64,000 nucleotides of DNA, from assembly GCF_004010195.1 (NCBI RefSeq), contig NC_057718.1, forward strand, positions 40,809,748 through 40,873,747. The letters run 5' to 3'. The notes below the pieces were generated by a model. The model did no database searches. It was not told where the DNA came from and saw nothing but the letters and a program-made list of their open reading frames with translations. The stretch's first letter is position 1; each line of letters starts with the position of its first letter. The DNA comes from Chiloscyllium plagiosum. Lineage: Eukaryota. Shown here one piece after another: positions 3,860-58,738 of the stretch. The position numbers were made by a program, and so were the translations under genes.

Positions 3860-4078
3860 AGAAAACTGCAGAGCTGGAATCCAAAGTAGATAAACAGGAG
3901 GCTGGAAGAATATAGCGAGCCAGGCAGCATCAGGAGGTGGAGAAGTCAACATTTCAGATATAACTCCCCTTGAAGAAGGGTTATACCTGAAATGTTGACC
4001 TCTCCACCTCCACCTCCACCTCCACCTCCACCTCCTGATGTTGCTTGACTTGCTGTGTACTTCCAGGTGGTTGTTTGT
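3860..4078. mobile_element. Palindromic Penelope-derived mini-element with central hammerhead-like motif
   Basis: 3890-3969 is the imperfect reverse complement of 3976-4078; core TTGAAGA-A-GGGT-TAT-ACCT-GAAATGTT at 3970-3996; (CCACCT)n expansion in the right arm. Confidence 0.7.
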
Positions 4079-4689
4079 GACTGTGCAGACTTCATGAGCA
4101 GAAGTGCCTTGCTCTGTGCAGCAGACCTCTATGATTCTATGACCTAAAGTGCCTGGGCCGAAATCCATCAATATAAATAAAATCCAACGAAGCTTCGGTT
4201 CTGGATTGCCGGTTTTGAGATGGTGTACCAGAAGATTGTTAATCAGATCAGTTAGCGTCTAAGGAAAATCAAAGCTGCAAGTGCCCTTGTGAAGGGCCAG
4301 TCCATAGCTTTAAACTATCTTTTTGTGCTACTTTGCTAGATTACACACTGGTAAAAAAGTAATCTACCTCATTGGCAAAGTAAACATATGTTAAACTGCA
4401 AAAGAAACTGATGCTCTAATATTGTGTAAATCAATTTTGGAGGAGAAAAAACTCAGAGTCAATTGGATGATGAAGGGTTGAGTGGGGCTTTTCGTAAGGC
4501 TTGCAATCACATTGAAATAAAGTTTCCAAAGGCAACCTCCCCCTTGTGAACAGTGGAAAATCGGTGGAAAGTCCAAGAAAACAGCATTAGTAACTATCTA
4601 TACCATTTGATGCATACCCCACATCCTTCTCCAAGCTGGGCTTGCGGGAAGGGGAAGGATAGCATGTGAGTGAGAGGGAAGCTACAAGG

Positions 4690-6170
4690 TATGTCCTCCC
4701 AACTCCTATACTCAATGCTCTGACCAATAAAGGAAAGCATACTAAACACCTCTTACCTACATGCGATTCTCTTTCAAGGAGCAATGAACCTGCACTCCAA
4801 GGTCTCTTGTTCTGCAGCACTCCCTAGGACCTTACCATTAAGTGTACAAGTCCTGCTTTGATTTGCTTTTCCTAAATGCAGCACCTCGCATTTATCTAAA
4901 TTAAACTCCATCTGCCACTCTTCAGCCCATTGGCCCATCTGATCAAACTCCTGTTGTAATCTGAGGTAACTTTCTTGGCTGTCCACTACACCTCCAATTT
5001 TGGTGTCAGCTACTAACTTACTATCTATACCTCCTATGTTCACATCCAAATCATTTATATAAATGATTCACCCTTTGTGTGAAAAACTTGCTTTGCACAT
5101 CTCTTTTAAACTTCTTCCTTCGCACGTTGAACCTGTGTTTCCTAGTAATTGACACTCCACCTGGGAAAAAGCCTCATGCTTTCCACTCTGTCCATGACAT
5201 TCACAATCTTATAAATTTCCATTATGTGGCACCTCAACCTCCTGCATTCCAGTGAGAACAAACCTAGTCTAGCTAACCTTTCTTCATCGCTAAAACCCAT
5301 CATACCAGCCAACATCCTGGTAAACCTTTTCTGTACCCTCTCCAAAGCATCTGCATCCTTCAGGTAATGTGGTGATCAGAACTATAAGCAATATTCCAAG
5401 TATGGCCTAACTAAAGTTCTATAAAGCTACAGCATAATTTGTCTTTCCTTATACTCGATGCTTCTTCCAATGAACATAGAATGTTATAGTGCAGTATAGG
5501 TCCTTTGGCCCTCGATTAAGGCAAGCAGGCCATAAGTCTGTTTTACTACCTTATCTACCTTCACTGTCACCTTCAGTGGTCTATGGAGCTGCACACCCAG
5601 ATTCCTCTGAATATCAATACTCCTGAGGGTTCTGCAATTCACTGTATAAATTCCATCCATACTTGACCTTCCAAAATGCGCCATCTCACATTTGTCGGCA
5701 TTAACTCTATCTGCCATTTTTCTCCCCAGTCCTCCAACTTAACTATATCTTGCTGTATCCTCTGATGATCCTCCTCACTTTCTGCAAATCCAATAATCTT
5801 TGTATCATCTGCAAAGTTACTAACTAGACCGGCAATGTTTTCCTCCAAATCATTTATATCGATCACAAACTGATCACTGTGGAGCACCATTAGTCACAAT
5901 CCTCTACTCCATTAAGCATCCTGCCACTGCTACCCTCTGTCTGCTATGACTAAACCAGTTCTGTAACCATCTTGCCAGCTCATACCTGATACCATGTGAC
6001 TTCATCTTTTGTACCAGTTTGCTTTGAGGGACTTTGTCAAAGGCTATACTGAAGTCCATGTAGACCATGTCAACCACTTTCCCCTCATCAAAAATCTTTG
6101 TCACCTCCACAAAAAATGTAATCAAGTTAGTGAAGGATGACATCCCCTGCACAAACCATGCTGTTGCATT
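4690..6170 (-). mobile_element. Composite of decayed CR1 ORF2 (reverse transcriptase) fragments
   Basis: ORF pieces YMDFSIAFDKVP, NFADDTKI, WQMEFNLDKCEVLH, ERVQKRFTRML; many stops and frameshifts. Confidence 0.9.
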
Positions 6171-6288
6171 TCTATCAAGAAAGCAAAGCATTCACAACAA
6201 TTAAAAAGTAAATCAATGTAACCTGTTGTTAGCAAGTTCTGTTGGATAAAGTAGTCCACGTTACAAAGTTAATTTTTTTATATACCAA

Positions 6289-7125
6289 GTGGCACTTCTG
6301 AGCGTGGGGCTCCTTCATTCTGTCCACTATTATTTTCGTTTCTTTTCTCTCTTACCTTGTTTTTTTCTCTTCTGTTTTATTTTACACATCTTTTGGTGAA
6401 GAGCTCAATCACGATGGTAGTGAGTGGGCCCAGCAATGTGGACTTGAGTGGGACTAGCAATGTGGACCCGAGTGGGCCCAGCAATGTGGACTCAAGTGGG
6501 CCCAGCAACGTAGACCCAAGTGATCCCAGTAACGTGGATTAGAGTGGGCCCAGCTACATGAACTCGAGTGGGCCCAATAACGTGAACTCAAGTGGACCCA
6601 ACAATGTGGACTTGAGTGGGCCCAGCAACGTGGGCTCGAGTGGGCCCAACAATGTGGACTCGAGTGGGCCCAGCAATGTGGACTCGAGTAGGCTCAGCAG
6701 CGTAGACTCAAGTGGGCCCAGCAACGTCGACTCAAGTAGGCCCATCAATGTGGACACAAGTGGGCCCAGCAACGTGGACTCGAATAGACCCAGCAACATT
6801 GACTTGAGTGGGCCCAGCAACGTGGACTCGAGTAGGCCCAGCAGTGTGGACCTGTGCACAGGTGTCGGAAGCGAGTTTGAGTTTCCGGTGGCATCTGCTT
6901 CCAGCATAGATTCATGGAAGTGAGTTTGGGTCCAGTATGAGACCCGGTGACATCAGCAACAGCTGCATTGGCGAGGTGGGCCTGAAGGGGAATCATCATG
7001 GCAGTGGAGCAGAGTTGGATTGGTTCAGTGGCTGGCAGCATTGGTGGTGTCAGAGAATGGTGACACTATACAACACTTTTTACTGTATTTTGTAACAAGA
7101 TCCAAGTGACAGGAAATCAAATCAA
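6289..7125 (+). mobile_element. Putative non-autonomous retroelement with Rex1/Babar-like 3' tail hosting the minisatellite
   Basis: Ends ACTTTTTACTGTA...GTGACAGGAAATCAAATCAA, resembling the Rex1 tail at 17189-17230 (GTGACAACAATAAATCAAATCAA on minus). Confidence 0.5.
6422..6853. repeat. Minisatellite, 18 x 24-bp unit (consensus GAGTGGGCCCAGCAACGTGGACTC)
   Basis: Unit starts every 24 bp from 6422 to 6830 without indels; variation is largely CpG decay. Confidence 0.95.
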
Positions 7126-7589
7126 GGCTTGGTTTGTACTTTATTCGATGTGAATGTGTAATTATTCAGAAGCAGTAGAATCCTGATGATTTGTTACTGA
7201 GAGATAAAATGAGCATTACAAAACACAGCCAGGAGCTTTTGAATTGTAGAGAAGTATAAATTTTGTTTGAAAAGCTCAGAAGAGACAGGTTAATAGTCCA
7301 GTGAGAATCGATTGTGTTGATTTAAAACTCAGTTGGAAAGGATTACTTTAGTTCTTGGATTTGCAACTGTCACTATTTTGTCTACTAGAGGAATTAGATA
7401 ATGATATTCTACAGTAACAATATGTAACAATATTACATCACTGCAAGATTATCCACTTTTTGTTCATCGATTCAATTCACTATTTTACATTCCAAATGTG
7501 ACACAATATAACATTATGCTTTCAAAACAAAACAAGGTGAAATGGAAACATATCACATGAATGCAACATAAAACATTCTGGAAAGCGCA

Positions 7590-8345
7590 GATCATTTGCC
7601 CCTTTTAAGAATACTCCACCATTCAATAAGAACAGGGCCGGTTTGATTGTTGCTTTCACTCCACTTTCCTGTCTGTCTCCCATAACTCCCTATTGAACAA
7701 ACGTCTGTAAAACCCAGTCTTGAATATTCAATGATTCAGCCTCCATTGCCTTCCATGACAGCAAATCACAAAATTGAATAACCCTCTAAGAGAACAAATT
7801 CCTACTGATCCCCAAATTAAATGGGCTGACCCTTTAATCTGAACTCCCTGGGAGGAGTCATTTACCCTGTCAACTTCCCTCAGAATCTGAAATGTTCCTC
7901 TTCCTCTAACTCCAATCACTAGAAGTCCATCCTTCTCAACCTTCCTCATAAAACAACTGTTTCATTCCAGGCATCAATCTAGGGAATACCCTCTGAACTA
8001 CCTCCAATATAAGTATATCCTTCCTTAAATAAAGGGACCCAAGTTCTGTAAAGAAATCTGGGCCTGGGCTCATCAATGCCCTCTAAAGTGTCAGTAAAAC
8101 TTCCCTACTTCTATACTCTGTGACTAACTGACATATGTTCAGGTAACTGGTCTACATATTCCTGTTGTCTGTTTCCCTTCTTTCTTGAAAGGAAGAGTTA
8201 TGTTAGCCATTTTCCAATTCACTGGCACCTTTCCAGTATCTAGGGAATTTTGAAAAATTACATTGATTGCATCCACTGTCTCTGCTGCCACTTCTTTTTT
8301 AGATCTTAGGATGTAGACAACAAGGTCCAGGGGACATGTTAACCT
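7590..8345 (-). mobile_element. Old CR1 LINE fragments
   Basis: Degenerate CR1 3' end and RT-upstream motifs (reverse complement of GGACCT..TCTACATCCTAAGATCTAAAAAGAAGTGGCAGCAGAG, ~PGP..HPRILKEVAAE). Confidence 0.6.
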
Positions 8346-8596
8346 TTCTCATATACATACTTTCAAAAGTATGTAAGATGGGACTCCCCCAAATTACAAC
8401 AGACAAAATAATCTAGAATACGATGTTTGAAAACCGTCCCACAGCATAGCTTACTCTCTTTCTTTATTGAAGTTTTTGAAAGTGGCCACTTCATGCCTGT
8501 GTGTACGCATGTGCATGTGTGTGTACACCTCATGGTAGAAATCATATGACTACAGCAAGCCATTTGTACGAGGTTGGCATTTCAATCCAAACACTG

Positions 8597-10018
8597 GTGC
8601 CACTGTGAAAGAAGGGTGGTAAGGACAAGCCAGGGTACTATAGACCAGCGAGCCTGACGGTGGTGGGCAAGTTGTTGGAGGGAATCCCGAGGGAGAGGAT
8701 GTACATGTATTTGGAAAGGCAAGGACTGATTAGGGATAGTCAACATGGCTTTGAGCCTTGGAAATCATGTCTCACAAACTTGATTGAGTTTTTGAAGAAG
8801 TAACAAAGAGGATTGATGAGGGCAGAGTGGTAGATGTGATCTATATGGACTTCAGTAAGGCGTTCGACTAGGTTCCCCATGGGAGACTGGTTAGCAAGGT
8901 TAGGTCTCACGGAATAAAGGGAGAACTAGCCATTTGGATACATAACTGGCTTAAAGGTAGAGGCCAGACAGTGGTGATGGAGGGTTGTTTTTCAGACTGG
9001 AAGACTGTGACCAGTGGAGTGCCACAAGGATCTGTGCTGGGTCCTCTACTTTTTGTCATTTACATAAATGATTTGGATGCGAGCATAAGAGGTACTGTTA
9101 GTAAGTTTGCAGATGACACCAAAATTGGAGGTGTAGTGGACAGGGAACAGAGTTATCTCAGATTACATCAGGATCTTGACCAGATGGGCCAATGGGCTGA
9201 GAAGTGACAGATGGAGGTTAACTCAGATAAATGCGAGGTGCTGCATTTTGGGAAAGCAAATCTTAGCAGGACTTATACACTTAATAGTAAGGTCCTAGAG
9301 AGTGTTGCTGAACAAAAAGACCTTGAAGTGCAGGTTCATAGCTTCTTAAAAGTGGAGTTGCAGGATAGTGAAGGTGGCATTTGGTATGTTTTCCTTTATT
9401 GGTCAGAGTATTGTGTACAGGAGTTGGGAGGTCATGTTGTGGCTGTACAGGACATTGGTTAGGCCACTGTTGGAATATTGCATGCAATTCTGGTCTCCTT
9501 TCTATTGGAAAAATGTTGTGAAACTTGAAAGCGTTCAGAAAAGATTTACAAGGATGTTGCCATGGTTGGAGGATTTGAGCTATTGGGAGAGGCTGAACAG
9601 GCTGGGGCTGTTTTCCCTGGACTGTCGGAGGCTGAGGGTTGACCTTATAAAAGTTTACAAAATTATGAGGGGAATGAATAGGATAAATAGGCAAAATCTT
9701 TTCCCTAGGGTCAGGGAGTCCACAACTGGAGGGCATAGGTTTAGGGTGAGAGGGGAAAGATATAAAAGTGACCTAACGGGCTAAGTTTTCATGCAGAGGG
9801 TGGTATGGGTATGGAGCAAGCTGCCAGAGGAAGTGGTGGAGGCTAGTACAATTGCAACATTTAAAAGGCACCTGGATGGGTATATGAATAGGAAAGGTTT
9901 GGAGGGATATGGGCCAGGTGCTGGCAGGTGGGACTAGATTGGGTTGGGATATCTGGTCGGCATGGACGAGTTGGATCGAAGGGTCTGTTTCCATGCTGTA
10001 CATCTCTATGACTCTATG
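8597..10018 (+). mobile_element. 5'-truncated HER1/CR1 LINE (RT domain to 3' tail), pseudogenised
   Basis: SGVPQGSVLGPLLFVIYINDL, KFADDTKIGG, LYRTLVRPLLEYC, CTCTATGACTCTATG tail; frameshifts and stops. Confidence 0.95.
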
Positions 10019-10482: not shown

Positions 10483-10514
<32 letters not shown>

Positions 10515-10745: not shown

Positions 10746-11108
10746 CTAGTTCACAGAAGTCTTAAGTATTGAAGTCAGATTGTGAAAATTGAATATTTAT
10801 AGCTTATTTCACAATCAGAATAAGTTACAAGCATGCATTCTGAAGATTTTCCATGCAGCAATCTCACATTAGAAGGAGTGGATATGGGATCCTAGTGTGG
10901 AGGGTGTGGCCAAATGATTTGATTTATTTTGGATACTTTTGAGCGTCTTCAGTGTTGTTGCAACAGTGGCCATCCAGGTGAATAGTGGATATTCCACTAC
11001 ACTCTTCATTGAACTTTGAATAAAAACGTTGCATGAGGTAGAAGCTTCTGCTTGTTCTTATTGCCACTTTGTTCACAGCTGGTTCAGTCAAGGTTCTGGT
11101 CAATGATG

Positions 11109-11306
11109 GAGAAAACTACTGCAGATAGGAAGGTGTACCGAAAGCAAAAAGTCTAGAAACCAAAGTAGGTCTGTCAGCATCTGTGGAGAGAGAACAAGCT
11201 AACATTTCGAGTCTCGATGACTCTTCATCAGATTCTGTCTGTTAGCTTGCTATCTCTCTGTGGGTGCTGCCTGACCCACTGTGATTGCCAGCAATTTTTG
11301 TTTTCA
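11109..11306 (-). mobile_element. 198-bp palindromic Penelope-derived insertion with 16-bp TSD
   Basis: GTTCTGGTCAATGATG at 11093-11108 and 11307-11322; inverted arms around a hammerhead-like core. Confidence 0.8.
11200..11231 (-). ncRNA. Minimal hammerhead ribozyme-like motif
   Basis: Minus strand CTGATGA-A-GAGTC-ATCGA-GACTC-GAAA-TGTT. Confidence 0.65.
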
Positions 11307-12049
11307 GTTCTGGTCAATGATGACTCTTTCAGACAATGCTTCACAAACAATTTCACAATATGACCCCATATTGAAATTGTAATCCCTTGGTAAACGTTTT
11401 GAGCTGAGTGCAGGGGCCTATGCGCTGAGAGAGCAGGGTTATGACCCGTCTTGCAGTCCCATCCCCTACATTGGGAAAGTCTGTCTAAGAATTTAGTAGA
11501 GGTTTAAATGTTAGCGGTGGTGTTGCTGGAGGTCAGTGGGAGATGGTTAGACTTTGTCTTGTTCAAGATGACAATTGTGCGAAATTTACATTGTGTGAAA
11601 GTTAGCAACAACTCGTCAGCATGAACCTTGATTGTTTTCACATGGTGTTGTGCACGAGCATGAATTAGCTAATTATCAATCCAATATACATTCTGTCCGT
11701 ACTAAGACTACTGAGGCCAAAAAGGCAACATTTTTGTCACAGATGTTCCAAGTTAAGAAGTCTCAAAGATATTATTCAGGTAGGGTCTGGTAAGGAACAT
11801 TACAGAAGTTCCCATGCATTTACTTACATGTAATACACAGGATATATGGTGATGAATTGTGCGGTTGAATTTATAATCCATGAAAGGGTTGATCTGGTCA
11901 GAGCAAAATCATGATTGACTCATGACTACACAATTGGCAAGTTATTAATTTTGATGCAGCACAATATTTATTGTAAATTGTGAATTTCATATAATAGATT
12001 ACACATACCAGATTGTAAACATATACAAACAAAAGCAAAGTTCTGCAGA

Positions 12050-12247
12050 TTAGACTAGATTAGACTAAATTCCCTACAGTGTGGAAACAGGCCCTTCGGC
12101 CCAACCAGTCCACACTGACCCTCCAAAGAGTAACCCACCCAGACCCATTTCCCTCTGACTAATGCACCTAAAACTACGGGCAATTTAGCATGGCCAATTC
12201 ACCTGACGTGCACATCTTTGGACTGTGGAAGGAAACCGGAGCACCCA
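12050..12247 (-). mobile_element. 5'-truncated HE1 SINE nested in a Penelope-derived mini-element
   Basis: Minus strand GGGTGCTCCGGTTTCC...GGGCCGAAGGGCCTGTTTCCACACTGTAG and a (TCTAR)n tail. Confidence 0.85.
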
Positions 12248-14911
12248 ATGGTAGAGATCAGGAATAAAAATAAAAATAAAATAGAAGGTTTTGGGGAAAC
12301 TTGGCAGTTCTGGCAGCATTTGTGAAAAAAGAAACAGAATTAACATTTCGTGTCCTATAACACTTCTTACAAAGAGTTTTGTTCTGACTCATTTGAAAAA
12401 AAAAAGTTGCCGTGTAAGGAGGAATACAGTTCTGAATTTTGAGCAGAAACATGTTGATAGGCTGTGGCTTTTCTTTGCATCTAACCATGTTTGACTTCAT
12501 CTGCTACTGACGCTGAATTTCCCCAAACAAGGTAATATGCCTCCCTCTAGCAAACAATATTCATCCTTTTAATGAATGCAAATACTGTTTAGTGCATCAG
12601 ATATTTTTCTGCATGGTAATGTTTGTCCAGACTTGTGAGTAATCTTCACAAAACAGGTGCAACATCTAATGCAGTATGCTGGGATGTGTAATATAAAGAT
12701 TGTCAAAGTATGATCATTCCGGAGTATAAATGTGGGTATATTGTGGCAGAGAGCAAACTATTTCAAAACATACAAGCACAGACAGTGAAGACAAGTTCTT
12801 AGCTAGGAACATGATGAATTGTTAGCTGCTTGTGTTTCCTAGTTGATAAAAGCTTCAAAAATTTTAGTCTCAACACAACTGAGTTTATCATATTACTTGG
12901 GTCGAATAAATATAAAACTAAAGATTAAATTAATTTTCTCAGAATGAGGGGATTAAAAACCACCTATCACTAAATAGGGCAGCAGACAGTAATCTTGGTG
13001 AACATTTATGATAACCTGCATCAAAACTAAGACGGTATAGTTGAGATAACTCTACAATCACATCATTACCAATTATGATTATGCCATGTAAGCTTAAATA
13101 TAGACTGCTAAATTAGTTTTGTGTCACTTAATAGCCCTAACTCTTTTCGCAACAACAATTTTTTATTGAACTACCCTTCAATCACATTAGTTGAAATTTA
13201 GTTGAAGGTGAAAATGAAATGTTGGCCCAAAGCAGATGGAAAACTTTCAAACACGAAGGAATAAGAACAGGAAAGGAAAACTGACGCCCTGAAAATACTG
13301 CAGCTTATTACTTTTACATATTGAAGACATTTGCATAAGCATTTTTTTTGTGCTCCAGAAAGACATACTATTGGTTGCTGAATTGCTATTTTTGTTGCAG
13401 TGACAGAGCTGGACCTAATGAATTGCATTTTTGTCATTTACTTCAAGTAGGAATAAACTACATTAACCTTGATATTCTTTTATGTGGAGAATATATTTTC
13501 TGGGGTTGAAATAACATATTTAAATGGTTTGAACATAAATTTGTGTTACTCTGCTAAATTCTGTTTATAACACATTCATTAGGTTCACAGGTACCGGAGT
13601 AGGTAATCCAGTCACTGAAGCCTACATGACCACTCAATGAGATCTTGACTGATTGGTATCATATCTCCATTCATTCAACCTGGTTCTGTAATATTTTGTT
13701 TAACAAAAATCTATTAATCTCAAACCAACATTTGTCAATTGCTCCAGCCTTAACAGCCTTCTGAGGAAAACATTTCAGCTTTTCTCTGTTAAACATCAGA
13801 AGAGGTTCTTCCTGCTGTCACCCCTGGACAGCCTCATCTAAAAATAGTGTTTTGTTGCAAACTGAGTAAAAATGCTTCATCTTTGCTTGAGGATATTTCT
13901 ATGTGACATCCACACCATGGAACAACTCCCCAGGAATAGTCCCTGACCACATTTTGCCGAAATGGTTTTTGTTCTAAAATTCTGACTTTTTTTTGTCAGA
14001 GGAAAGAGTGAATGTTGCTGCTTATCAAAGTAAGGGATGTCACTGTTGTGGAAAATAGCATTTTTATAGTTTTGGCAGGCGTTTTCAGCATCAAACATTG
14101 CTGGAGCGAGATATATTGCAGGCTTGCTGTAAAGTAAAGGTCCCTCTATTCTGTGCCAACAATAAACTGTGATTTAACCCCAAACTCAGCACAGCACCTC
14201 TGACTGGCTGCAATGTGATGTTTCTATTTCCCAGAGCAGCCACCCCATGGCCTCTTTTTGAGTGACAATTGCCAATTTCATGGAAATCATCAGTAATTAT
14301 TGGCTGTGACCTGACACCCAGCAAGGACTCGACTGAGAATGCCCAGACTAATTTCCCCTGAGCTCCTTCCCACTAAAGGACACTTTTATCCTAAAGGTCT
14401 GAGCTGGAATAAATCCTAATGCTATATGTAAAAAGAATGTTCCCTTATGCTGTGGCACCAATTCCGAATGCAGCCAAGGGTTCAGTCAGAGTTGTCCTGT
14501 CTGCTTTTTGTTTCCACAGGTTTTGAGTACTGGTGTGAGAATTGAAACAAAAATCCACATATATTTACTGACAGTCCTATTCAGCTCCTTGAATAGCTGT
14601 AAGTTTGGCATCAACCAATAGCCCCAATTAGATCGAATTTCGGGCGACTGTGTTAATATCCTCATTGTGTTTGCACCAAAAGTACAGGCCAATGCTGCCA
14701 GTTAGAGTTTAGCAAGATTAGCTTGACAAATAGTGACATTAAATCCTGATTGGTCACGGTAAATTCCAGTCACTGCCACTAAGCAACACTTAGACTCAAA
14801 GAGTGTGTCAAACAGCATCATTCTTTTTAAATACTCATGGAGAACCTTTACCTAATATAGGAGATTTTTCTTTTACTTTCTGCTTTTGTGGCCTTTATCA
14901 TGTTGTTTTCA

Positions 14912-15235
14912 GCAGCACAGTGCCTCAATGGTTGGCACTGCTGCCTCACAGGGCTAGGGACCCAGGTTCAATTCCAGCCTTGGGTGATGCGTGGGTTCTC
15001 TCCATGCCTGTGTGGGTTTCAGTCCAAAATCCAAAGATACGCAGGTGAGGGGGATTGGCCACGCTGAAATTGTCTGTAGTGTTCAGGGGTGTGTAGGCTA
15101 GGTAGATTTGCAATGGTAAATGTGGCGTTATGGAGATGTGGTAAGAGTCTGGGTTGGGATGCTCTTTGTTGTGTTGGTGCAGTCACGATGGACCAAATGG
15201 TCTCCTTCTGCACTGTAGGGGTTTTATGATTCTAT
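14912..15235 (+). mobile_element. HE1-type V-SINE, decayed
   Basis: GCAGCACAGTGCCTCAATGGTTGGCACTGCTGCCTCACAG, GGTTCAATTCC B-box, CR1-like tail. Confidence 0.8.
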
Positions 15236-16800: not shown

Positions 16801-16802
16801 TT

Positions 16803-16935
16803 AGATGATGTGGAGGTGCCAGTGTTGGACTTGGGTGGACAAAGTTAAAAATCCCACAACACCAGGTGATAGTCCAACAGGTTTATTTGGAAGTACAAGC
16901 TTCCGAAGCATCGCTCCGTCGTCAGGTAGCTCGTG
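16803..16935 (-). mobile_element. Penelope-type terminal-repeat fragment with hammerhead-like motif (second family)
   Basis: Minus TAC-CTGACGA-C-GGAGC-GAT-GCTTC-GGAAGCTT-GTA then AATAAACCTGTTGGACTAT.ACCTGGTGTTGTG; same family as 41876-41967. Confidence 0.65.
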
Positions 16936-17188: not shown

Positions 17189-18153
17189 TTTATTTGATTT
17201 GATTTATTGTTGTCACATATATCTAAGTATTGTTTCGTGTGCAGTGTAGGCAGATCATAACATACAAGGGCATAGGGTGATTCGAACAGAATAAGGCATA
17301 CAAGGTTGTGGTTGCTCAGGAGGTATACAAAAACAAGATCGACATTAAATTTGACATTAGAGAAGTCCATTCAGCAGTCTAACAACAGCAGGGAAGAAAC
17401 TGCTCTTGAACCTGTTGGTGCGTGTGTTGAGCTGCCTGACAGGAGAGGTTGGAAGAGATTATAACTGTGATGGAAGGAGTCTTTGATGTGGTTGGCTGTT
17501 TATCTGCGGCAACAAGAAGTGTAGATGGAGTCAATGGATGGAAGGTTGACTTGCATGATGGACTGGGCTGTGTTCACAACTTTTCATAGTTTCTTGTGGT
17601 CCTGGGCAGAACAGTTGCCATACCAATCCATGATGCACCCAGATAGAATGCTTTCTATGGTGCATCTGTAAACATTGGTGAGGGTCCTTATAGACATACT
17701 GAATTTTCTTAGCCTCCTGAGGAAGAAGAGGCATTGTTGTGCCTTCTTGACCATCTCATTGACATGGGAAGTCCAAGATAGATCATTGGTGATCATCACT
17801 CCCAGGAATTTGATGCTCTCAACCCTCTCCATCTCAGCTCCATTTTTGCAGATAGGGGTGTGTCCTCCTCCTTTATTCCTAAAGTCAATGATCAGCTCTT
17901 TAATTTTGCTGACATTGAAGGAGAGATTGTTATCTTTGCACCATAACACCAAGCATTCTATCCTCTTTTTGTATACTGTCTCATCATTCTTTGATATCCG
18001 GCCTACAACGGTGTCATAATCAGTGAACTTGTAGATGCTGTTTGGATGAAATTTGGCCATCAGTCATGAGGATACAGGGAGTACAGTAGGGGGCTGAGTA
18101 CACTTCCTTGCAGGGCACTGGTGTTGAGGATTATTGTGGAGGATGTGTTGTTT
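17189..18153 (-). mobile_element. Rex1/Babar-type LINE, 5'-truncated
   Basis: QGSVLSPLLYSLY.HD, ORF 17584-18060 KFTDYDTVVGRI..WCKDNNLSFNVSKIKELIIDFR..YRCTIESILSGCI..WYGNC; tail AATAAATCAAATCAAA. Confidence 0.88.
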
Positions 18154-18444: not shown

Positions 18445-18780
18445 GGGCAGCACGGTGGCACGGTGGTTAGCACTGCTGACTCACAGTGCCAGAGACCCGG
18501 GTTCAATTCCCGCCTCAGGCGACTGACTGTGTGGAGTTTGCACGTTCTCCCCGTGTCTGCGTGGGTTTCCTCCGGGTGCTCCAGTTTCCTCCCACCATCC
18601 AAAAAAAATGTGCAGGGTTAGGTGAATTGGCCATACTAAATTGCCCGTAGTGTTAAGTAAGGAGTAAATTGTAGGAGTATGGGTGGGTTTCGCCCCGACC
18701 GAGTCGGTGTGGACTTGTTGGGCCGAAGGGCCTGTTTCCACACTGTAATCTAATCTAATCTAATCTAATCTAATCTAATC
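18445..18780 (+). mobile_element. Full-length young HE1 V-SINE
   Basis: Intact A/B boxes, V-domain GTGTGGAGTTTGCACGTTCTCCCCGTGTCTGCGTGGGTTTCCTCCGGGTGCTCC, CR1-shared tail, (TAATC)n; CpGs retained. Confidence 0.93.
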
Positions 18781-23117: not shown

Positions 23118-24032
23118 AGTGAAAGTGAAGACTGCAGATGCGGGAGATCAGAGTTGAAAATGTGTTGCTGGAAAAGCGCAGCAGGTCAGGCAGCATCCAA
23201 GGAGCAGGAGAGTCGAAGTTTCAGGCATGAGCCCTTCTTCAGGAATGAGAAAAGTGTGCCAAGCAGGCTAAGATAAAAGATAGGGAGGAGGGACTTGGGG
23301 GAAGGGCGTTGGAAATGAGATTGGTGGAAGGAGGTTAAGGTGAGGGTGATAAGGTGAGGGTGACAGGACGGAGTGGGGGTGGGGGTGGAGAGGTCAGGAA
23401 GAAGATTGCAGGTTAGGAAGGTGGTGCTGAGTTCGAAGNNNNNNNNNNNNNNNNNNNNNNNNNNNNNNNNNNNNNNNNNNNNNNNNNNNNNNNNNNNNNN
23501 NNNNNNNNNNNNNNNNNNNNNNNNNNNNNNNNNNNNNNNNNNNNNNNNNNNNNNNNNNNNNNNNNNNNNNNNNNNNNNNNNNNNNNNNNNNNNNNNNNNN
23601 NNNNNNNNNNNNNNNNNNNNNNNNNNNNNNNNNNNNNNNNNNNNNNNNNNNNNNNNNNNNNNNNNNNNNNNNNNNNNNNNNNNNNNNNNNNNNNNNNNNN
23701 NNNNNNNNNNNNNNNNNNNNNNNNNNNNNNNNNNNNNNNNNNGAGGGAAATATATCCCTGGTGGTGGGGTCCGTTTGGAGGTGGCTGAAATGACGACGGA
23801 TGATATGATGTATATGGAGGTTGGTGGAGTGGTAGGTGAGGACCAGTGGGGTTCTGTCCTGGTGGCGATTGGAGGGGTGGGGCTCAATGGCGGAGGAGTG
23901 GTAAGTGGAGGAGATGCGGTGGAGAGCATCGTCGACCACGTCTGGGGGGAAATTGGGGGGAAATTGCGGTCTTTGAAGAAAGAGGCCATCTGGGTTGTTC
24001 AGTATTGGAACTGGTCCTCTTGGGAGCAGACA
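23118..24032 (-). mobile_element. Penelope-like element, 3' part, interrupted by an assembly gap
   Basis: Homologous to 53370-54435 (MASFFKDRNFP, DRTPLVLTYH..N, TDPTTRDIFP); terminal repeat with CTGAAGA-A-GGGC-TCAT-GCCT-GAAACTTC at 23215-23242. Confidence 0.9.
23439..23742. other. Assembly gap (304 N)
   Basis: Run of N. Confidence 1.
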
Positions 24033-26982: not shown

Positions 26983-27260
26983 GGTGGCATGGTGGCTCAG
27001 TGGTTAGCACTACTGCCTCACGTCAGGGTTCCAGGTTTGATTCCAGCCTTCGGCAACTGTCTGTGTGGAGTTTGCACATTCTCCCTGTACTCCGGTTTCC
27101 TCCCACATTCCAAAGATGTGCAGGTGAATTGGCTATGCTAAATTGTCCATAATGTTAGGTGCATTAGTCAGAGGGGGGATGGGTTACTCTTTGGAGGGTC
27201 GGTGTGGACTTGTTGGGCTGAAGGGCCTGTTTCCACACTGTAGGAAATCTAGTCTAACCA
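26983..27260 (+). mobile_element. HE1-type V-SINE with internal deletions
   Basis: GGTGGCATGGTGGCTCAGTGGTTAGCAC..., GTGTGGAGTTTGCACATTCTCCC, GGGCTGAAGGGCCTGTTTCCACACTGTAG. Confidence 0.88.
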
Positions 27261-28740: not shown

Positions 28741-29175
28741 TAATGTGATTTCTAGGAAGACTTGTTAAAAAAGATTTCCAATATCCAAAATGACCTTCCA
28801 ACTTTCTCTCTTAAAGGAGGTCCTTTACTCCAGGTACTTCTACACATCTTAAAAGAAACTGATTTTGTCACAATCCTTCAAAGTTTAAGGACTCCAAGTA
28901 ATGTTAAATATAAAGCATCTGTATAAGAGCAACAGAACTGATTTTGAACAAATATCTGAAGAAGGAACCTTATTCTGAAGGATAACATTGCAGTAAATAA
29001 AAATTATACCACTTACAAATAAAAATGGAGAGCCATTATTACGTAGGGGTTACAGAATCAAGTAATAATCGTAGGATAATGATAGTCTAGATGGTCAGAG
29101 GCATTATCACTTTCATTAAGTTATTCAGCTGAGGGGCAACTTGTGCTCTGAGCAGAACCAAGTGTGATAACTCAA

Positions 29176-29556
29176 CAGCATGGAAACAGACCTTTTGGTC
29201 CAACTTGTCCATGCCAACCAGATGTCCCAACTCAATCTAGTCCCACCTGCCAACACCTGGCCCATATCGCTCCAAACCTTTCCTATTCATAAACCCATTC
29301 AGATGCTTTTTAAATGTTGCAATTGTACTAGCCTCCACCACTTCCTCTGGCAGCCAATTCCACACATGCACCACCCTCCGCGTGAAAGAATTGTCCCTTA
29401 GGTCTCTTTTATCTCTTCCCCTCTGACTCTAAATCTATGTTCTCTAGTTCTGGACTCCCCCACCCCAGGTCAAAGACCTTGTCTACTTACCCTAGCCATG
29501 TCCCTCATGATTTTATAAACCTCTATAAGGTCACCCCTCAGCCTCCGATGCTCCAG
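29176..29556 (-). mobile_element. HER1/CR1 LINE 3' end
   Basis: Reverse complement of the sequence family at 9620-10000. Confidence 0.92.
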
Positions 29557-33075: not shown

Positions 33076-35347
33076 TTTTGAAAAAATAAGCTAATACAAT
33101 TAATAACAACAAATTCAGAAGTGACATACCTTTTAGATCAATAAATTATTAAGCAGCAGGTGTGATTGAACTAACAGCAGAGGGAACAGCAACAAATCTA
33201 TCAACTAATAGAGCTACAGGAACAATTGATGAGTACATTCAAAAGCCAGTGGGCATGGCAATATATCAATTGATAATGAATATGATAATAGATAATGTAG
33301 CTTGTAGCTCCATTAATAGATAATGATTACCAGTGAATTATTAAACTCAAGAGAGCATTAGACAAATACAAATCAATACATTAATGTATAGGGGTACCTG
33401 GAACAGTAAACATTGGCAAATTCATAAATCAGCTCAGAATAAGAGATCGGTCAAATAAAATTTCTCCCTTCAAAGCATTGTAAGTCTTTAGAATTTCAAC
33501 CCCAGGGAAACCCCAATGACTCTCAGTCATTGATGAAATGCACAACAGACACAGATGGATACTGAGAGAATCAAATGAAATGAGGACAAGATAGGAAAGT
33601 GAAATTGAGATAGATTCGTCACATTTGCATTGAATGGCAGAGTAATTTTGAAGGGTTGAAGGGCTGAACGACTTACATCAGACTCGGATGCATTTGTAAT
33701 GCATTTTAATTCACTTTGAAAAGCAATGCAATGATTAAAACTTTAAAAAAATATATTTTATTGCACCTTTTGTTGAGGATTACTATTGATTTCTTTCCTT
33801 TAATTTGCAGTCAAAGAAAATCTCCAGGAGTTTTTCCCCTTTTCAGCTTTGACTTATTCTGAATATCAGTCCATACTCACAGGCTGTTTAATGAAAAATA
33901 CATTTACCATTGACTCAACTTCAGATGCAAGTCTGGCTATATCACTCAATTTCAAAGGAGCTACAAGCTACATAAGACCCAAAGCTGACATGGTCTCTTA
34001 GCTGCTTCATTCAACGATTCTCATCTATAGGCTATGTGCTAACTAAGTCACAGAGTTAAATGCAACAATAAATAATCTCATCAGACTCCACTCATTTCTC
34101 TGGCACTGTGACGCTCGTGGCTTGTTCCCAGGTAGAAAAACAAATTAACTATCTTTTTATTTCTAAAGCTTTCTTTAATTTTGGAGAACTACACAAATAA
34201 TTTATCATATACTAGAATAACTGCAAATTTCATATCTTCTATTCTTTAGCGAAGTAAGCTCACCTGCTGTTTCATGATCTTACTTTTCAAGCTGGTAAAC
34301 TCTCAAGTCAACACAAACCCAAATGGTTAAGTGTACAAAACTCCAACCTTGTCTGAATTACATTTCCTTCCACATTTCTTGATAGGATTTTCCATTAATA
34401 TTACATTAGATACTTTAACATCCAAACTAAAAGTTCTATGCCTAAATAGCACAGTTAAATTCTGATACACATGAATCAATGAAATTGATATTAGTAAAAA
34501 TATTGTGTCATATTTCAGGTTCTTTTCATTGTTTTTCCACAATAAGGTGTAATGAACTTATTTTTTACTTTTGTGACTTTAATAAACTGTGGACTGTAAA
34601 GCGAAATAACTTTTTTCCCCCAGAAAACAGGGATTTACTATGATGGCTACATAACTTCACAGCAAGGAATTTGATACCTAATGTGAACTTTTCTTTGTAG
34701 CTATGGGCTGCTGCAATTTGCAACAATCAGGAGCTGAGAAGTTGTTTACAGGTGAAGCTGATTGGTTCTCACCTAACTGAGCAATTTGGAACTGGAAACA
34801 AGTTATAAAGGCACAGACACATAACAGCGAATAGGACACAGAAGAATGTGCTGTTGTTCTCCCAAAGAAAAGTTGCCTGATTTCTACAGTAAAAAAATTC
34901 TCAGTTTAAACTTGGAAAATTTAACTTGGAAAAAAATATCCTTATCTTTCTTGTAGAATTCGTTGTGAGGTGTGTTTTTTGAATTGATAAACCAGAAACA
35001 TTTTTTCAAGTGACTGAGTTGCTCTTCTCTTCTTATAAACCAATGGAACTTTCCAGAAGAAAGGCATCTGAACACCCAAGGGCTTTGCTAGCCGAAGTAG
35101 TATCATGTCAATATTGCTACTGGGAAGCACAGATCACTGAACTGCACCAATAATCTTTTATCCCCATTTATAGTCTGCATGTATGCAATAGGGAGTTTAT
35201 AAATCAATTAGAATTTTAGTCAGTGGTGTTATATTCCAATGGTTTATCTCTGTTTCCCTTGTTTAGTAAAGAAACTTTATTTATGCTTTTTATCAACCTT
35301 GTTCTGAAAGTCGGGTACATTGGGATATTGTGTGTATCTTAAAAAAG

Positions 35348-35480
35348 TTTTTCCTGAAGAAGGGCTTATGCCCGAAACGTCGATTCTCCTGTTCCCTGGA
35401 TGCTGCCTGACCTGCTGCGCTTTTCCAGCAACACATTTCCAGCTCTGATCTCCAGCATCTGCAGACATCACTTTCTCCTC
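35348..35480 (+). mobile_element. 133-bp Penelope terminal-repeat-only insertion with 15-bp TSD
   Basis: TGTATCTTAAAAAAG at 35333-35347 and 35481-35495; body matches the 3' ends of the Penelope copies at 23118-23245, 39611-39742 and 54340-54435. Confidence 0.9.
35354..35381 (+). ncRNA. Minimal hammerhead ribozyme, best-preserved copy
   Basis: CTGAAGA-A-GGGC-TTAT-GCCC-GAAACGTC: complete catalytic core, perfect stem II, ACGT palindrome replacing helix III, GUC cleavage triplet; helix I only ~2 bp. Confidence 0.75.
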
Positions 35481-35779
35481 TGTATCTTAAAAAAGCCTTA
35501 ACATTTGGTACGACTCCAGGAATAGCAGATCTCAACTTACAGAGGTGCTTTCCCAGTGGATTGTAACAAAGGATTAGTAGAAAAGTGACTTTTAAGGCAG
35601 AGTTTATTGCTGCAACTCAAAAAGACATCTGAGGAAGTAAAGTTTGTAATGATAATGAGTTAGACTTACTGTTATTGCTTCATAGGTTGTAAATTACAAT
35701 TGGTTCAGCAGCTTGTATTTGCAACTGAGAAATACCCACCTCCATGGTCCCTTCATTCTTTATACTTTACTATGAGTAT

Positions 35780-36571: not shown

Positions 36572-37130
36572 ACATTGGTGAGGCCACTTTTGGAGTACTG
36601 TGTACAGTTCTGGTCACCCTGCTACAGTAAGAATAGTATTAAATTGGAGAGGCTCAGATTAGATTTATCAGGATGTTGCCGGGACTGGAGGGTTTGAGTT
36701 ATAAGGAGAGGCTGGATAGGCTGGGACTTCTTTCACTGGATCATAGGATGTTGATGTAAACCTTTTAGGGGTTTACAAAATCATGAGAGGCATAAATAAG
36801 GCAAATAACAAAGGTCTTTTCCCTAAGGTGGAGGAATTCAAACTGGGGGCATATTTTTAAGGTCAGAGGAGAAAGATTTATAAGGGACCTGAGGGACAAC
36901 TTTTCCACATAGCGTGTGGTTCGTATGTGTAATGAACTGGCCGAAGAACTGATAGATATCAGTACAGCTACAAAATTTAAAATACATTTGAATAGGTATG
37001 TGAATAGGAAATGTTTAGAGGGATATGGTCCCAACCAAGGCAAGCTGACGAGTTTAGTTTGGAAAACTTGGTTGGCATGGACTGAGTTGTCCCATGGGTC
37101 TGTTTACTCTATGCTGTATTACTCTATGAT
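36572..37130 (+). mobile_element. CR1/HER1 LINE 3' portion
   Basis: LVRPLLEYCVQFWSP, LSYKERLDRLGL, RDNFF..VVRMCNEL, CTCTATGA tail. Confidence 0.9.
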
Positions 37131-37485: not shown

Positions 37486-37588
37486 GATTTCTGAGGAAGG
37501 ATCACTTGACCCAAAACATTAACTCTGATTTCATTCCACAGATGTTGCCAGACCTGCTGAGCTTTTCCAGCAATTTCTATTTTTGTCT
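37486..37588 (+). mobile_element. ~100-bp Penelope-derived mini-element with degenerate hammerhead motif
   Basis: CTGAGGA-A-GGATCA-CT-TGACCC-AAAACATT at 37491-37520; imperfect TSD TTAATAT(T/C)TC(T/C)T at 37474-37485 and 37589-37600. Confidence 0.65.
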
Positions 37589-39180: not shown

Positions 39181-39742
39181 GTAGTTGGCCACAGGGTGGT
39201 GGGGTTGTTTGTCCGTTTGAGGGAACATCTTTGGGACATAAGCACCAAACAGCCCCACTGCCCTGTGGCTGAGCACTTCAATTCCTCCTCCCACTCCATC
39301 AAGGACATGCAAGTCCTGGGCCTCCTCTACCACCAAATCCAAGTCACCCAACACCTGGAGGATGAATGCCTCATCTTCTGCCATGGGACCCTCCAACCAC
39401 ATGGCCTCAACTTCACTGGTTTCCAAATCTCCCCTCCCACCACCTCATCCCAGATCCAACCCTCCAAATCCACTTGAACTGTCCCACCTATCCGCTCCAT
39501 CCTCCCTTCTGACCTATCACCATCTGCATTTACCTATCGCCTTCCCAGTTACCTTCCCTGCAGCCCACCTCCCCCGCCTAGTTAACTTGCAGCCCCCTTC
39601 CCCACCCCCACATTCCTGATGAAGGGCTTATGCCTGAAATTTCGACTCTCCTGCTTCTCAGATGCTGCCTGACCTGCTGTGCTTTTCCAGTGCCACACTT
39701 TTCAACTCTGATCTCCAACATCTGCAGTCCTCACTTTCTCCC
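39181..39742 (+). mobile_element. Penelope-like element 3' part (GIY-YIG C-terminus plus terminal repeat)
   Basis: RLREHLWD...PVAEHFNSSSHSIKDMQVLGL...LIFCHGTLQPHGLN; CTGATGA-A-GGGC-TTAT-GCCT-GAAATTTC at 39616-39643. Confidence 0.9.
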
Positions 39743-41050: not shown

Positions 41051-41584
41051 TATCGACGTGTCCAGAGCAACTCCCTCCTAAAAAGGGAGCAACTCCCTCC
41101 TATTTTTGCTGTTGTTGGTTCTGTTTCCTAGGTCAATACCAAATGTTCTGTTGGGTTTCATTTATGTTTTGAGAATGTCTGAAGATTGTTACAAGTAAGT
41201 GGTTTGCCAAACCATTTCAGAGAGCAGTTAAGAATCAATCACATTGCTATGGGTTTGAAGTCACATGCACCAAATAAGGATGACAATTGCTTTCCCGAAA
41301 GGACACTAGTGAACCAGATGGGTTTTTTTGGTTTCATCGTCATCATTACACTTGTAATTCCAGATTTTGTGAAATTGAATTCAGATTCCATAATCCGCCA
41401 AGGTGGATTCACCTTCCACATGTCTTGCAACGTATGCGTGTTCTAGTGGTTGCATTAACCATTAGGATTGTACTGATGACCTGTAAGCTTCATCAACCTG
41501 TGAGAATCACTTCAATCTTAAATGTATGGAAAAACCTACAGGCCCTAGATATCTAAAATAAAAACAGGAAGTGCTAGAGACTGC

Positions 41585-41967
41585 CATGTTGGCCCAGATA
41601 ATGCATTGAAGGTGTGAGGTGCCCTGTGTGAGGTTGTCTGTCTGTGCCACAATGTTCAGACTGATTCTAATCTAAAAAAGGGATTTCGTTAAAGTTCACT
41701 TGAGAATGTAACTTTAAGAAAGTTCTGAGATTTACATATGAAAGAATTGAAATCAACATGCCCATTCTAAAAGATGAGGGACTTAACAAATAATCTGGGT
41801 CTTTTTCAATATATAATTTCAGTTACATCTCATTGTAAATTTTTGTTATAATCCTATGATCTTGTACTCGACAACCACATTATGAAGGAGCAGTGCTCCG
41901 AAAGTCAGTGCTTTCAAATAAACCTGTTGGACTATAACCTGGTGTTGTGTGATTTTTAACTTTGTAC
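41585..41967 (+). mobile_element. Penelope-type repeat (second family) ending in a hammerhead-like motif
   Basis: CAC-ATTATGA-A-GGAGC-AGT-GCTCC-GAAAGTCA-GTG at 41876-41910, followed by AATAAACCTGTTGGACTATAACCTGGTGTTGTGTG. Confidence 0.6.
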
Positions 41968-42004
41968 ACAACACATGGGGTATTTAAAAGTAAATTACCT
42001 TGAA

Positions 42005-52964: not shown

Positions 52965-54436
52965 ATTTCTTTGAATCCTCCCACTTCCTGCCACCTGCAC
53001 GGGCCCCATCTCTGCCTGTCTCTTTGTTGGCTATGTGGAATAGTCCATCTTCCACAGTTACACTGGCACCATTCCCCACCTTGTCCTCCGCTACATCGAT
53101 GACTGCATCAGCACCACCTCATGCTCCACGAGGAGGTTGAGCAGTTCATCAACTTCATCAACACATTCCACCCTGACCTTAAATTCACCTGAACCATCTC
53201 AGACACCTCCCTCCCTTTCCTGGATCTCTCCATCTCCATCAACGGTGACTAACTCAACACAGACATCTTCTACAGACTCCCACAGCTACCTGGACTACAC
53301 CCCTTCCCACCCTGCCTCCTGTAAAACTGCTATCCCTTATTGCCAATTCCTCTGCCTCTGCCATATCTGCTCCCAGGAGGATAAGTTCCAACACAGAACA
53401 CACCAAATGGCCTCCTTCTTTAAAGACCGCAATTTCCCCTCCCATGTGGTTGATGATGCCTTCCAGCGCATCTCATCCACTACCCGCACCTCCGCCCTCA
53501 AACCCCACGCCTCCAACCGCAACAAAGACAGAACACCCCTGATCCTCACCTTCCACCCCACCAATCTCTGTATACATCACATCATCCTCCGCAATTTCCG
53601 CCATCCACAAACAGACCCTACAACCAGAGATATATTTCCCTCCCCACTCCTATCCACCTTCCGTAAAGACTGTTCCCTCCGCAACTCCCTCATCAGGTCC
53701 ACACCTCCACCAACCCATCCTCCCCTCCCGGCACCTTCCCCGCCACTGCCGGAATTGCAAATCCTGTGCCAACACCTCCCCCCTCACCTCTGTCCAAGGC
53801 CCCAAAGGAGCATTCCACATCCATCAAAGTTTCACTTGCACTTCCACACATGTCCTTTACCGTATCCGTTGCTCCAGATGCGGTCTTCTCTACATTGGGG
53901 AGACAGGACGCCTACTCACAGAGCGCTTCAGAGAACATTTCTGGGGCACCCGCACGAACCAACCCCATCGCGCCATGGCTGAACACTTCAACTCCCCCTC
54001 CCACTTGGCCAAGGACATGCAGATCCTGGGCCTTCTACACCACCACTCCTTATCACCTGATGCCTGGAGGAAGAACGCGTCATCTTTCGCCTCAGGACCC
54101 TCCAACCCCATGGTATCAATGTGAATTTTACCAGTTTCCTCATTTCCCCTCCCCCAACCTTATCCCAGATCCAACCTCCCAATTTGGCACCTCCTCATGA
54201 CCTGTCTAACCTGTCCATCCTCTTTCCCACCTATCCACTCCATCCTTCCCTCTGACCCATCACCATTACCCCCACCTCCATCCACCTATCACACTCTCAG
54301 CTTCCTTCCCCCCAGCCCCACCCCCTCAGCTTACATCCTCATTCCTGATGAAGGGCTTTTGCCCGAAATGTTGATGCTCTGCTCCTTGGATGCTGTCTGG
54401 CCTGTTGTGCTTTTCCAAAACCACACTAACGACTCT
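52965..54436 (+). mobile_element. Penelope-like element (RT C-terminal half, GIY-YIG endonuclease, terminal repeat), pseudogenised
   Basis: RYIDDCI, FINTFHPDLKFT*TIS..SLPFLDL, HVLYRIRCSRCGLLYIGETGRLLTERFREH (GIY-YIG); CTGATGA-A-GGGC-TTTT-GCCC-GAAATGTT at 54345-54372. Confidence 0.93.
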
Positions 54437-56974: not shown

Positions 56975-57225
56975 TGATGGTGAGTTTAAGTCCCACTTCA
57001 GAATTTTGTCTAATTTAGACAGACACTTCCATACATTATGGAATTGCTGCATTGTTAGAGAGGCTGACTTTCAAATGAAACTATAACCGGTGCTTCCGTC
57101 TGCCTGCTAAGCTGCCTATGTAAGATCCCATTGCACTTTTATCAAACAGCACAATTATTCAAGTGCAGTAAACATTGTTTCCTCAACTAGTACTATCATA
57201 GCTTGTTCATATTCACTGCTAAATT
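56975..57225 (+). mobile_element. Decayed DeuSINE-like (SacSINE1-type) SINE in the last LYPLAL1 intron
   Basis: GAGTTTAAGTCCCACT (B-box-like), TGCTGCATTGTTAGAGAGG..CTTTCAAATGAAAC.ATAACCGG..CCGTCTGCC..AAGATCCCATTGCAC (Deu-domain-like). Confidence 0.55.
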
Positions 57226-57329
57226 TAAGCCCGGGGATTAGTTACACCTCAAAAGACATTCATTGGCAATGCAGTTACTGGGATCTACTGAGGTCACAAT
57301 GCAAGTAAAAATTCCATCCTTCTGCTTAC

Positions 57330-57445
57330 CTGGTAGACAATAGAATCCTTATTCAAGAAACTGGATAAAACAAACACTCCTGCTACTTGTTGCTGAAATC
57401 TATAGGCTACGTGCATAGCCATTGTCCCTCCCATTGAAAATCCCC
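57330..57445 (-). CDS. LYPLAL1: Lysophospholipase-like 1, penultimate coding exon (116 bp)
   Basis: Acceptor TTTGCAG|GG, donor CAG|GTAAG; (G)[38 protein letters not shown] with GxSxG nucleophile elbow; splices in frame to the last exon. Confidence 0.96.
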
Positions 57446-57624
57446 CTGCAAAGTCAAATACAGATCCAAATCAACAGTTTTATAAACTACAATACAAATT
57501 GAATGCAGACTGATGTAGTCAAACTAGCTTTGAGAGTTTTATTATACAGAAAAATAAGCTTGTACCATTAGGGACAATTTAATTATTTTTATTTTAATAA
57601 TTGGAACTCAAAATATTATTTCCT

Positions 57625-58300
57625 CCAAGCCACTCCCTCGAGTTTTTAAATCAAAGATTTTACACCTTGAGTCTCTGGTTATGGACTCACTCACCAAAGA
57701 AAGTAGTTTTACCTTATCAAAACCTCTCAAACTTGAATCCCCCTCGGAGGTCTCCTCTCAACCTTCTCTATGCTAAGTAGAATCGTTCTAACCTTTTAAA
57801 CCTCTTCAGTTATTAAAGCCACTTGTTCTGGTAACATCCAAATAAATCTCTTCTGCAACCTTTGAGGCTTTATATATTTTAGTTTGGTGTCCAAAATTTC
57901 ACACAGTTTTCCTGCTAAGGCCTAATCAACAATTTTGAAAGTTTGAGGGACATTTAGTTGGTTTCATATTCTATGACTATCCATAAACCTAAGTAAACCA
58001 TTATATTTTGAATGAGCATATCAACTTTAAGGAGTTATGGATATGAATCCAAAAGCTCTCTCTGATTAGCTATACTTTCCAAAACTGTGCCTTCATTTGT
58101 AATATACTGTCTTTCTACATTCCATATTATCCATTCTTTTGAGCTCCATCTGACATGTTTCGGTTAGATTCACAACCTCGCCTGTGCCATCCTGAAGGCT
58201 GTAACCATCCTTACTGCTATATACTACATTGTGAAGTTTCATACCATCAATAAACTTTATAAAGCCACTAAAAGTCCAGATGATTTATCAAAACTGCAAG
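57625..58300 (-). mobile_element. Old CR1 fragments in LYPLAL1 intron
   Basis: Degenerate LIRP..E..VKFW.P, RLRGDLRG..IQV, L*ESITR.RCK. Confidence 0.6.
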
Positions 58301-58315
58301 TTAACATATACAAAA

Positions 58316-58738
58316 TATATATCAGCATCTCATTTTCTGCTTGGGGACCCTGCAACCCTCCTGACTCAACAGAGTTCAATAATTTTATGTCCTGAACTCT
58401 GCCATGTTTTAGATGCCAATTCCACACACTAGGTCTTGTTATCACATAATCTGTGTATTGTAAGCCACTAACAGTTTGCATTTACAGTTATTCACTCTCC
58501 TAGCTAGATCATTATCCACTCCTTTGTCTGTCCAACTGTTCTTCATTCTCTTTGGGCTCTAAGCGCATCTACTGTTTATTCCTTCCCTCTCACCCCACCC
58601 TATCTTCTGCATATAAATCAACATTTTCCGAGCTACATAAACTCTGATAAAGGGTCACTGAACCCAAAACGTTACCTCTGATTTCTCTTCACAGATGCTG
58701 CCCGACCTGCTGAGTTTTGCCAACAACTTCTGTTTTTG
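58316..58738 (+). mobile_element. Penelope 3' fragment (third family) with 9-bp TSD and degenerate hammerhead motif
   Basis: HLIFCLGTLQPS*LNRV; CTGATAA-A-GGGT-CACTGA-ACCC-AAAACGTT at 58644-58673; TATACAAAA at 58307-58315 and 58739-58747. Confidence 0.75.

Follow-up and report, generated by a model that had tools for sequence, protein, structure and literature searches.

A window of 64,000 nucleotides from the genome of the shark Chiloscyllium plagiosum (contig NC_057718.1, positions 40,809,748 to 40,873,747 of the forward strand) carries 11 hammerhead ribozyme motifs. With a probability of roughly 0.7, these motifs are hammerhead cores in the terminal repeat of Penelope-like elements (PLEs) that encode a reverse transcriptase (RT) and a GIY-YIG endonuclease, and the tiny copies among them arose when RT ran off the capped 5' leader of the element mRNA. 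The motif class itself has been published previously. The value of the present data lies in a fossil map of the RNA start, its cap and the priming sites; no earlier account of these, or of a cap-derived G or start-site stubs in PLEs, was found in the literature outside subscription papers and Repbase notes. Positions within copies are numbered from C3 of the hammerhead core (position 0), and the predicted cut of family A falls between +27 and +28.

In the proposed mechanism, RNA polymerase II would start at an initiator A (-4 in family A and about -8 in family B) that coincides with, or lies close to, the first base of helix I. The PLE protein would bind the leader, nick the DNA and prime inside its own RNA at about +90 or +125. 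Priming near the 5' end of the mRNA would lead to run-off at the cap and a stub of 95-130 bp. Long 5'-truncated copies would result if the same site were used in a tandem unit further downstream. Both target strands would be primed, one per site, giving rise to head-to-head pairs.

All 11 motifs proposed in an earlier, sequence-only reading of the window were recovered at the same positions and on the same strands. A strict descriptor (CUGANGA, 0-1 extra nucleotide, a 4-6 bp stem and GAAANNUH, with zero mismatches) matched the window five times, compared with a mean of 0.025 (maximum 1) in 40 dinucleotide shuffles, and with one core mismatch allowed nine matches were obtained versus 0.6 in shuffles. 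In 80 genome stretches taken at round coordinates (800 kb), 56 strict matches were counted, versus 0-1 in three Markov controls. A wider sample of 140 stretches, taken at round coordinates of large contigs and totalling 1.35 Mb after N were left out, contained 98 strict cores, 81 with a helix I of at least 2 bp and 55 also with the palindrome. Extrapolated to the 3.56-Gb genome, this corresponds to about 258,000 strict cores, 213,000 with helix I and 145,000 also with the palindrome; the motifs are very abundant, as had been supposed. The 29-mer of one young subfamily alone had 18,737 exact genome matches (control, 0). Most copies in the window are damaged, again as proposed: the cores at 11200, 23215, 35354, 39616 and 54345 are intact, the remaining six bear core changes, and only 35354 combines an intact core with a self-complementary tetramer. 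At 12342 the 5' core box is damaged and the 3' box intact. No Rfam model matched the window motifs, even at E<=10.

The motifs are minimal type I hammerheads of the PLE kind and belong to several families, as judged from core, helix I and tetramer features together with linkage to open reading frames (ORFs). The core boxes CUGANGA and GAAA..UH, a stem II closed by G10.1-C11.1 and the extra nucleotide after A9 were all found. Clustering of 236 hits gave eight clusters of at least two hits and 45 singletons; position 10.1 was G in 183 of 189 clustered hits, and 11.1 was C in 151 and U in 35. Covariation of stem II was present between PLE families, as it has already been described for this class (PMC4209133). 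Helix I lies outside the descriptor. Across the seven families with at least three hits, 20 of 21 helix I pairs were Watson-Crick while the letters differed by family, compared with a mean of 7.6 pairs in a family-swap control (p 0.00025, an approximate value given that the families are related). The first two helix I positions were paired in 144 of 189 copies, versus 1-11 for slid partners. The palindromic tetramer said to replace helix III was self-complementary in 127 of 189 copies, and another 50 were CpG-decay forms. Folding recovered only stem II reliably, and in dimer folding the hammerhead dimer was not the minimum-energy form, a result of little weight.

Family A cores were located about 160-180 nt past the stop of ORFs of up to 749-893 amino acids containing RVT_1 and GIY-YIG domains (loci L132 and L135); in Pfam, RVT_1 scored above the cut-off and GIY-YIG just below it. 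Families B and A2 showed endonuclease remnants only, upstream in other loci (GIY-YIG remnants of family B in L179, L181, L241 and L251). ORF linkage covers families A, B and A2, and the families at 3970, 11200 and 12342 lie outside it. A PLE protein search of the genome returned 134,804 first-look candidates, and a PDB sequence search with the ORF gave no match. Within the window, RT or endonuclease remnants were detected by tblastn upstream of 54345, 39616 and 23215, and the copies at 41876 and 58644 reach 198 and 341 nt into their pseudo-long terminal repeats (pLTRs). The carriers had been described as Penelope ends and tiny stand-alone elements. The first part holds for these five (23215, 39616, 41876, 54345 and 58644), which are the 3' ends of longer truncated PLE remnants; the other six of the 11 are short. 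The pLTR/tandem layout, an inverted 5' copy, a one-sided tail and a target-site duplication (TSD) were all seen. Translations of families A and B contain a Zn-finger-like CX2-5CxxC linker, and by this sequence both families may be Neptune-like. The frame that opens with an ATG near +46 is uninterrupted through the tail, and in other PLEs the first codons lie in the pLTR (PMC3846280). At L291 (G000:C1:16162500-16166300), three partial tandem units continue about 85-105 nt beyond the distal end (+125), run into the likely ORF start and then rejoin the pLTR. A third PLE group, outside the 11 motifs of the window, has a bulged stem II of 8-9 nt and no Zn linker was seen in it; its endonuclease frame ends within the hammerhead itself (+14).

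The ends of the copies were mapped for 161 family A insertion events in the 140 stretches, comprising 87 plain insertions, 53 with an inverted arm and 21 censored by a gap or an edge; three reference copies were removed from the boundary analysis after foreign sequence was found in at least one of them. The 3' ends occurred at two fixed places, one at +85-99 and the other at +120-126, in agreement with the pair of internal sites at which the RT of an anole element starts in vitro; insertion of that element is independent of the ribozyme (PMC11167929). The 5' ends fell within -12 to +11 in 39 of 87 plain copies, 28 of 53 primary arms and 35 of 49 secondary arms, and the chance of ending per nucleotide (188 arms) was 0.084 at -6 to -1, compared with 0.0073 at -50 to -13 and 0.012 at +26 to +31. 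A pattern that left out long copies and accepted boundaries from 0 to -10 had 4089 matches, the first 100 of which, tallied by hand, were distributed from 0 to -10 as 3, 4, 8, 36, 27, 13, 8, 1, 0, 0 and 0, with 76 at -3 to -5, one at -7 and none beyond. The 5' edge of family A is a wall rather than a slope. Among 39 young single copies taken in genome order, 25 ended in -6 to +6 and 26 had a TSD, and 16 of 24 short inverted pairs showed the same wall by their spacing. In family B, 40 of 72 uncensored arms ended in -9 to +11, with a wall about 8 nt upstream of the core. Position -4 of family A is both the first base of helix I and the A of a match to YYANWYY, the initiator consensus. An internal promoter and initiator are held by the pLTR of Drosophila virilis Penelope (PMC2377424). 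A spliced upstream exon was rejected as the cause of the wall, no shared foreign sequence being found before it. A shared T-rich start of 30 near-identical copies was produced by the query itself (frequent words are passed over in the DNA search, and queries made of the tail alone matched nothing), and the A2 boundary analysis, swamped by family A cross-matches, was left unused.

An extra G was frequently found directly before the wall, the expected share of G before a boundary being 26%. Among the first 100 of the 4089 family A matches, G preceded the -4 boundary in 12 of 27. In a second family A subfamily it was present at 69 of the 100 -4 junctions listed, and at 42 of the 70 that remained unambiguous after removal of 27 G and three A/T cases that an inverted arm could have templated (p about 2e-9). 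For family B, 100 listed rows were examined before -8, from which 26 long copies with a point change were dropped; G was found in 60 of the 74 kept and at 29 of 42 unambiguous junctions (p 7e-9, among the matches listed). As controls, other boundaries near the wall had G in 9 of 72 cases, and junctions around the cut site in 6 of 37. Full-length LINE-1 insertions carry an extra G that reflects the mRNA cap (PMC11702581), and the G at the wall resembles this signature. By analogy, it likely marks the capped start of the element RNA.

The sequence-only reading had regarded the short copies as distinct ribozyme-bearing non-autonomous elements, a view that was not upheld. Thirty-five of 45 short family-A arms share loop/stem haplotypes with long or ORF-linked copies, in similar proportions (14:15, 8:6, 6:4 and 3:2), the remaining ten being singletons or one pair, and their 5' edge resembles run-off at a capped start. 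Separate elements of a retrozyme-like kind, or resembling short interspersed nuclear elements (SINEs), with their own master copies and mobilised in trans by the PLE protein, would account for the huge copy numbers, the fixed length classes and the TSDs in 26 of 39 young singles, and PLE-derived retrozymes are known in vertebrates, one chondrichthyan among them (bioRxiv 2026.07.22.740005). However, the common haplotypes and their proportions make this explanation unlikely, as do junction contexts upstream of the wall that vary from copy to copy and the lack of tandem arrays in the window. Neither the tandem arrays nor the own lineages of retrozymes were found, the nearest case being the single three-unit partial tandem at L291. 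A short stub with an internal promoter could be re-transcribed.

The wall might also represent a structural or protein roadblock unrelated to the transcription start, at which RT stalls or the cDNA is trimmed and joined at the hammerhead fold and its palindromes. The end rate is indeed already raised within the core (0.028 per nt at 0 to +11), many -3 junctions show microhomology with the inverted arm, and palindromes at inverted junctions have been published (PMC3846280). Nevertheless, this origin is improbable, as a stall would be expected where RT first meets the fold, on its 3' side, and not past it, and an extra G at one position in two unrelated families is not predicted by it. It is less probable still that junctions at the cut site are copies of ribozyme-cleaved RNA. 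Boundaries from +23 to +31 numbered 10, 3, 9, 7, 12, 26, 10, 15 and 8 among the first 100 of 926 matches, 26 thus beginning at +28, the first base past the cut. However, 12 of the 26 were otherwise explained (seven helix-I microhomology joins to the inverted arm, two other arm joins and three small deletions), leaving 14 at +28 versus 12 at +27 and 10 at +29 (p 0.04 versus a mean of 8.2 and 0.22 versus 11, the neighbours not being cleaned likewise). The cut-site class is at most small. The whole core is kept in most short copies, which points to an uncut template, and the ribozyme would be unneeded for these insertions because the copied RNA was uncut. One recurrent junction (7 of 100 listed; G000, contigs C1-C2) joins a wall-ending arm to the base after the cut via helix-I complementarity, and such a helix-I microhomology junction mimics a cleavage footprint. 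In one polyA single-cell run, about 2% of which was read, reads came from both strands and their depth tracked copy number; neither read starts nor read ends were piled up, in a library that cannot reveal cap or cut.

Among the inverted pairs, 69 of 72 combined a distal with a proximal end and three were proximal with proximal, and no distal pair was found where 16.5 were expected. These counts fit two active sites priming the two target strands, one site each. The anole protein cuts and extends both strands and is predicted to be a dimer (PMC11167929), and the one-sided tail has been published for endonuclease-positive (EN+) PLEs (PMC3846280, PMC8557442). Fold-back synthesis ending at the proximal site may be another origin of the pairs.

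Several points weigh against run-off from a capped start. The wall of family B is less sharp than that of family A, and in family A roughly one arm in three terminates within the core or past it (among ends at or left of +60, 93 of 180 arms lie at 0 or further right), so that stalling or trimming must contribute as well. The G, wall and cut-site tallies were made by hand on the first 100 listed matches (contigs C1-C3), with arm-templated junctions judged by eye. Alternatively, the G could have been added without a template wherever a template ends, or could be the base with which master copies that were not seen begin. Neither a full-length copy with a native 5' end nor a copy joining the +46 ATG to the RT frame was found, so that the contiguity of the start codon with this frame is presumed. 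Finally, the leader layout is not universal, because D. virilis Penelope has an intron between start and hammerhead (PMC2377424, PMC4209133).

More tentatively, the hammerhead would sit at the extreme 5' end of a capped mRNA, the first transcribed bases opening helix I and self-cleavage acting as a self-decapping switch, and a dimeric RT would prime both strands from two leader sites, so that the insertions form a fossil map. Cutting, if any, would likely take place only as a palindrome-mediated dimer or with protein help, and would either take off the cap, 18 nt ahead of the likely start codon, or divide tandem transcripts into units. If self-decapping holds, cleavage just upstream of the start codon would withdraw the RNA from translation; if the fossil map holds, several hundred thousand shark insertions would record where the cap and both priming sites lie and, more faintly, where the RNA is cut. 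What the hammerhead does in endonuclease-bearing PLEs has been termed unclear (PMC8557442), and the steps after PLE priming are unvalidated (PMC11167929). From this genome the RNA start, both priming sites and the inverted-arm pairing rule can be predicted to the base, and these predictions are open to test by cap analysis of gene expression (CAGE) and in the in vitro PLE system already established.

Table 1 Copies carrying the 11 hammerhead motifs of the window, and loci of the third PLE group.
Feature	Position	Strand	Details
Young short family-A insertion, -3 to +125, distal end	35351..35479	+	core 35354-35381, with cleavage predicted after 35381; probable ORF start codon 35400; 15-bp TSD 35333-35347 and 35481-35495
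5'-truncated family-A PLE, proximal end (+85)	53032..54429	+	pLTR; intact core 54345-54372; RT thumb/GIY-YIG remnant 53422-54195 (ORF remnants; tblastn E 5e-46 to 9e-47); inverted piece 53032-53441
5'-truncated family-A PLE, distal end (+125)	39205..39741	+	endonuclease remnant (tblastn E 1.5e-23); pLTR; intact core 39616-39643
5'-truncated family-A PLE	23121..24030	-	intact core 23215-23242; tblastn E 4e-32; assembly gap 23439-23742; inverted piece 23954-24030
Family-B PLE end, -198 to +90	41582..41969	+	damaged core 41879-41907; inverted piece 41582-41686
Short family-B insertion, -2 to +120	16805..16927	-	core with A13 change
Family-A2 PLE end, -341 to +95	58323..58739	+	damaged core 58644-58673
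Short family-A2 insertion, -2 to +95	37489..37586	+	core with G12 change
Head-to-head short insertion, another related family	11093..11322	-	intact core 11200-11231 in the long arm (minus); inverted arm shorter (plus); 16-bp TSD at both ends
Head-to-head short insertion, another related family	3865..4075 (right end approximate)	+	C3 change and local 6-nt tandem expansion in the direct arm (from 3970); inverted arm 3865-3963
Old short copy, another related family	12265..12373	-	damaged 5' core box
Third PLE group	L142:892-1290, L197:2621-3094, L265:9120-9734 (minus)		

The young copy at 35351..35479 shares 96% identity with the terminal part of an ORF-linked copy and has 30 near-identical loci. 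Other repeats were also present in the window. A 24-bp tandem array (6422-6851, about 18 copies) is open on both strands for 126-132 codons, and a roughly 300-bp SINE-like repeat, which we take to be a tRNA-derived shark SINE, occurs in five copies (1445-1743, 12050-12246, 14912-15217, 18447-18768 and 26984-27257). Fragments of the 3' part of long interspersed nuclear elements (LINEs) with RT remnants, presumably CR1-like, lie at 1-287, 8872-10018, 29175-29557, 36572-37115 and 59004-59573, and the RT remnant of another LINE-type element at 17584-18063 (minus).

The motifs closely resemble the class of Cervera and De la Pena (PMC4209133) in their core boxes, the extra nucleotide after A9, G10.1-C11.1, the short helix I, the palindromic 15.2-16.2 without helix III, the many families per genome and the opposite-strand pairs. 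In that class, too, the motifs are mostly single and dispersed, which was ascribed to probably truncated PLEs. They differ in having a helix II of 4-5 bp and a helix I of 2-4 bp here, and in number, with about 258,000 strict cores compared with 4,000-9,000 in coelacanth and Xenopus, counted with different descriptors; no shark was among the motifs in the examined parts of the main text and supplement file 2 of that study. Non-LTR retrozymes (bioRxiv 2026.07.22.740005; PMC7229834) are likewise PLE-derived, non-coding and equipped with a type I hammerhead. However, they form tandem arrays, whereas the copies here are dispersed, single or head-to-head, and share subfamilies with ORF-bearing elements. 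With PAc (Poseidon, Anolis carolinensis; Frangieh et al. 2024, PMC11167929), they share a hammerhead where pLTR and ORF meet, a tail delimited by two internal RT start sites, cutting and extension of both strands and ribozyme-independent insertion; capped-start mapping and run-off stubs are not described in the parts of that study examined. The CX2-5CxxC linker of families A and B sets them apart from this Poseidon element. Insertions of EN+ PLEs (Arkhipova et al. 2013, PMC3846280; Craig et al. 2021, PMC8557442) are likewise truncated at the 5' end, with an inverted 5' copy, a tail of 30-40 bp confined to one end, TSDs of 8-17 bp and a pLTR that contains the first codons. Antisense self-priming was proposed for them in 2013 (PMC3846280); in contrast, the two arms here terminate at one shared edge that bears an extra G, which points to a sense capped template.

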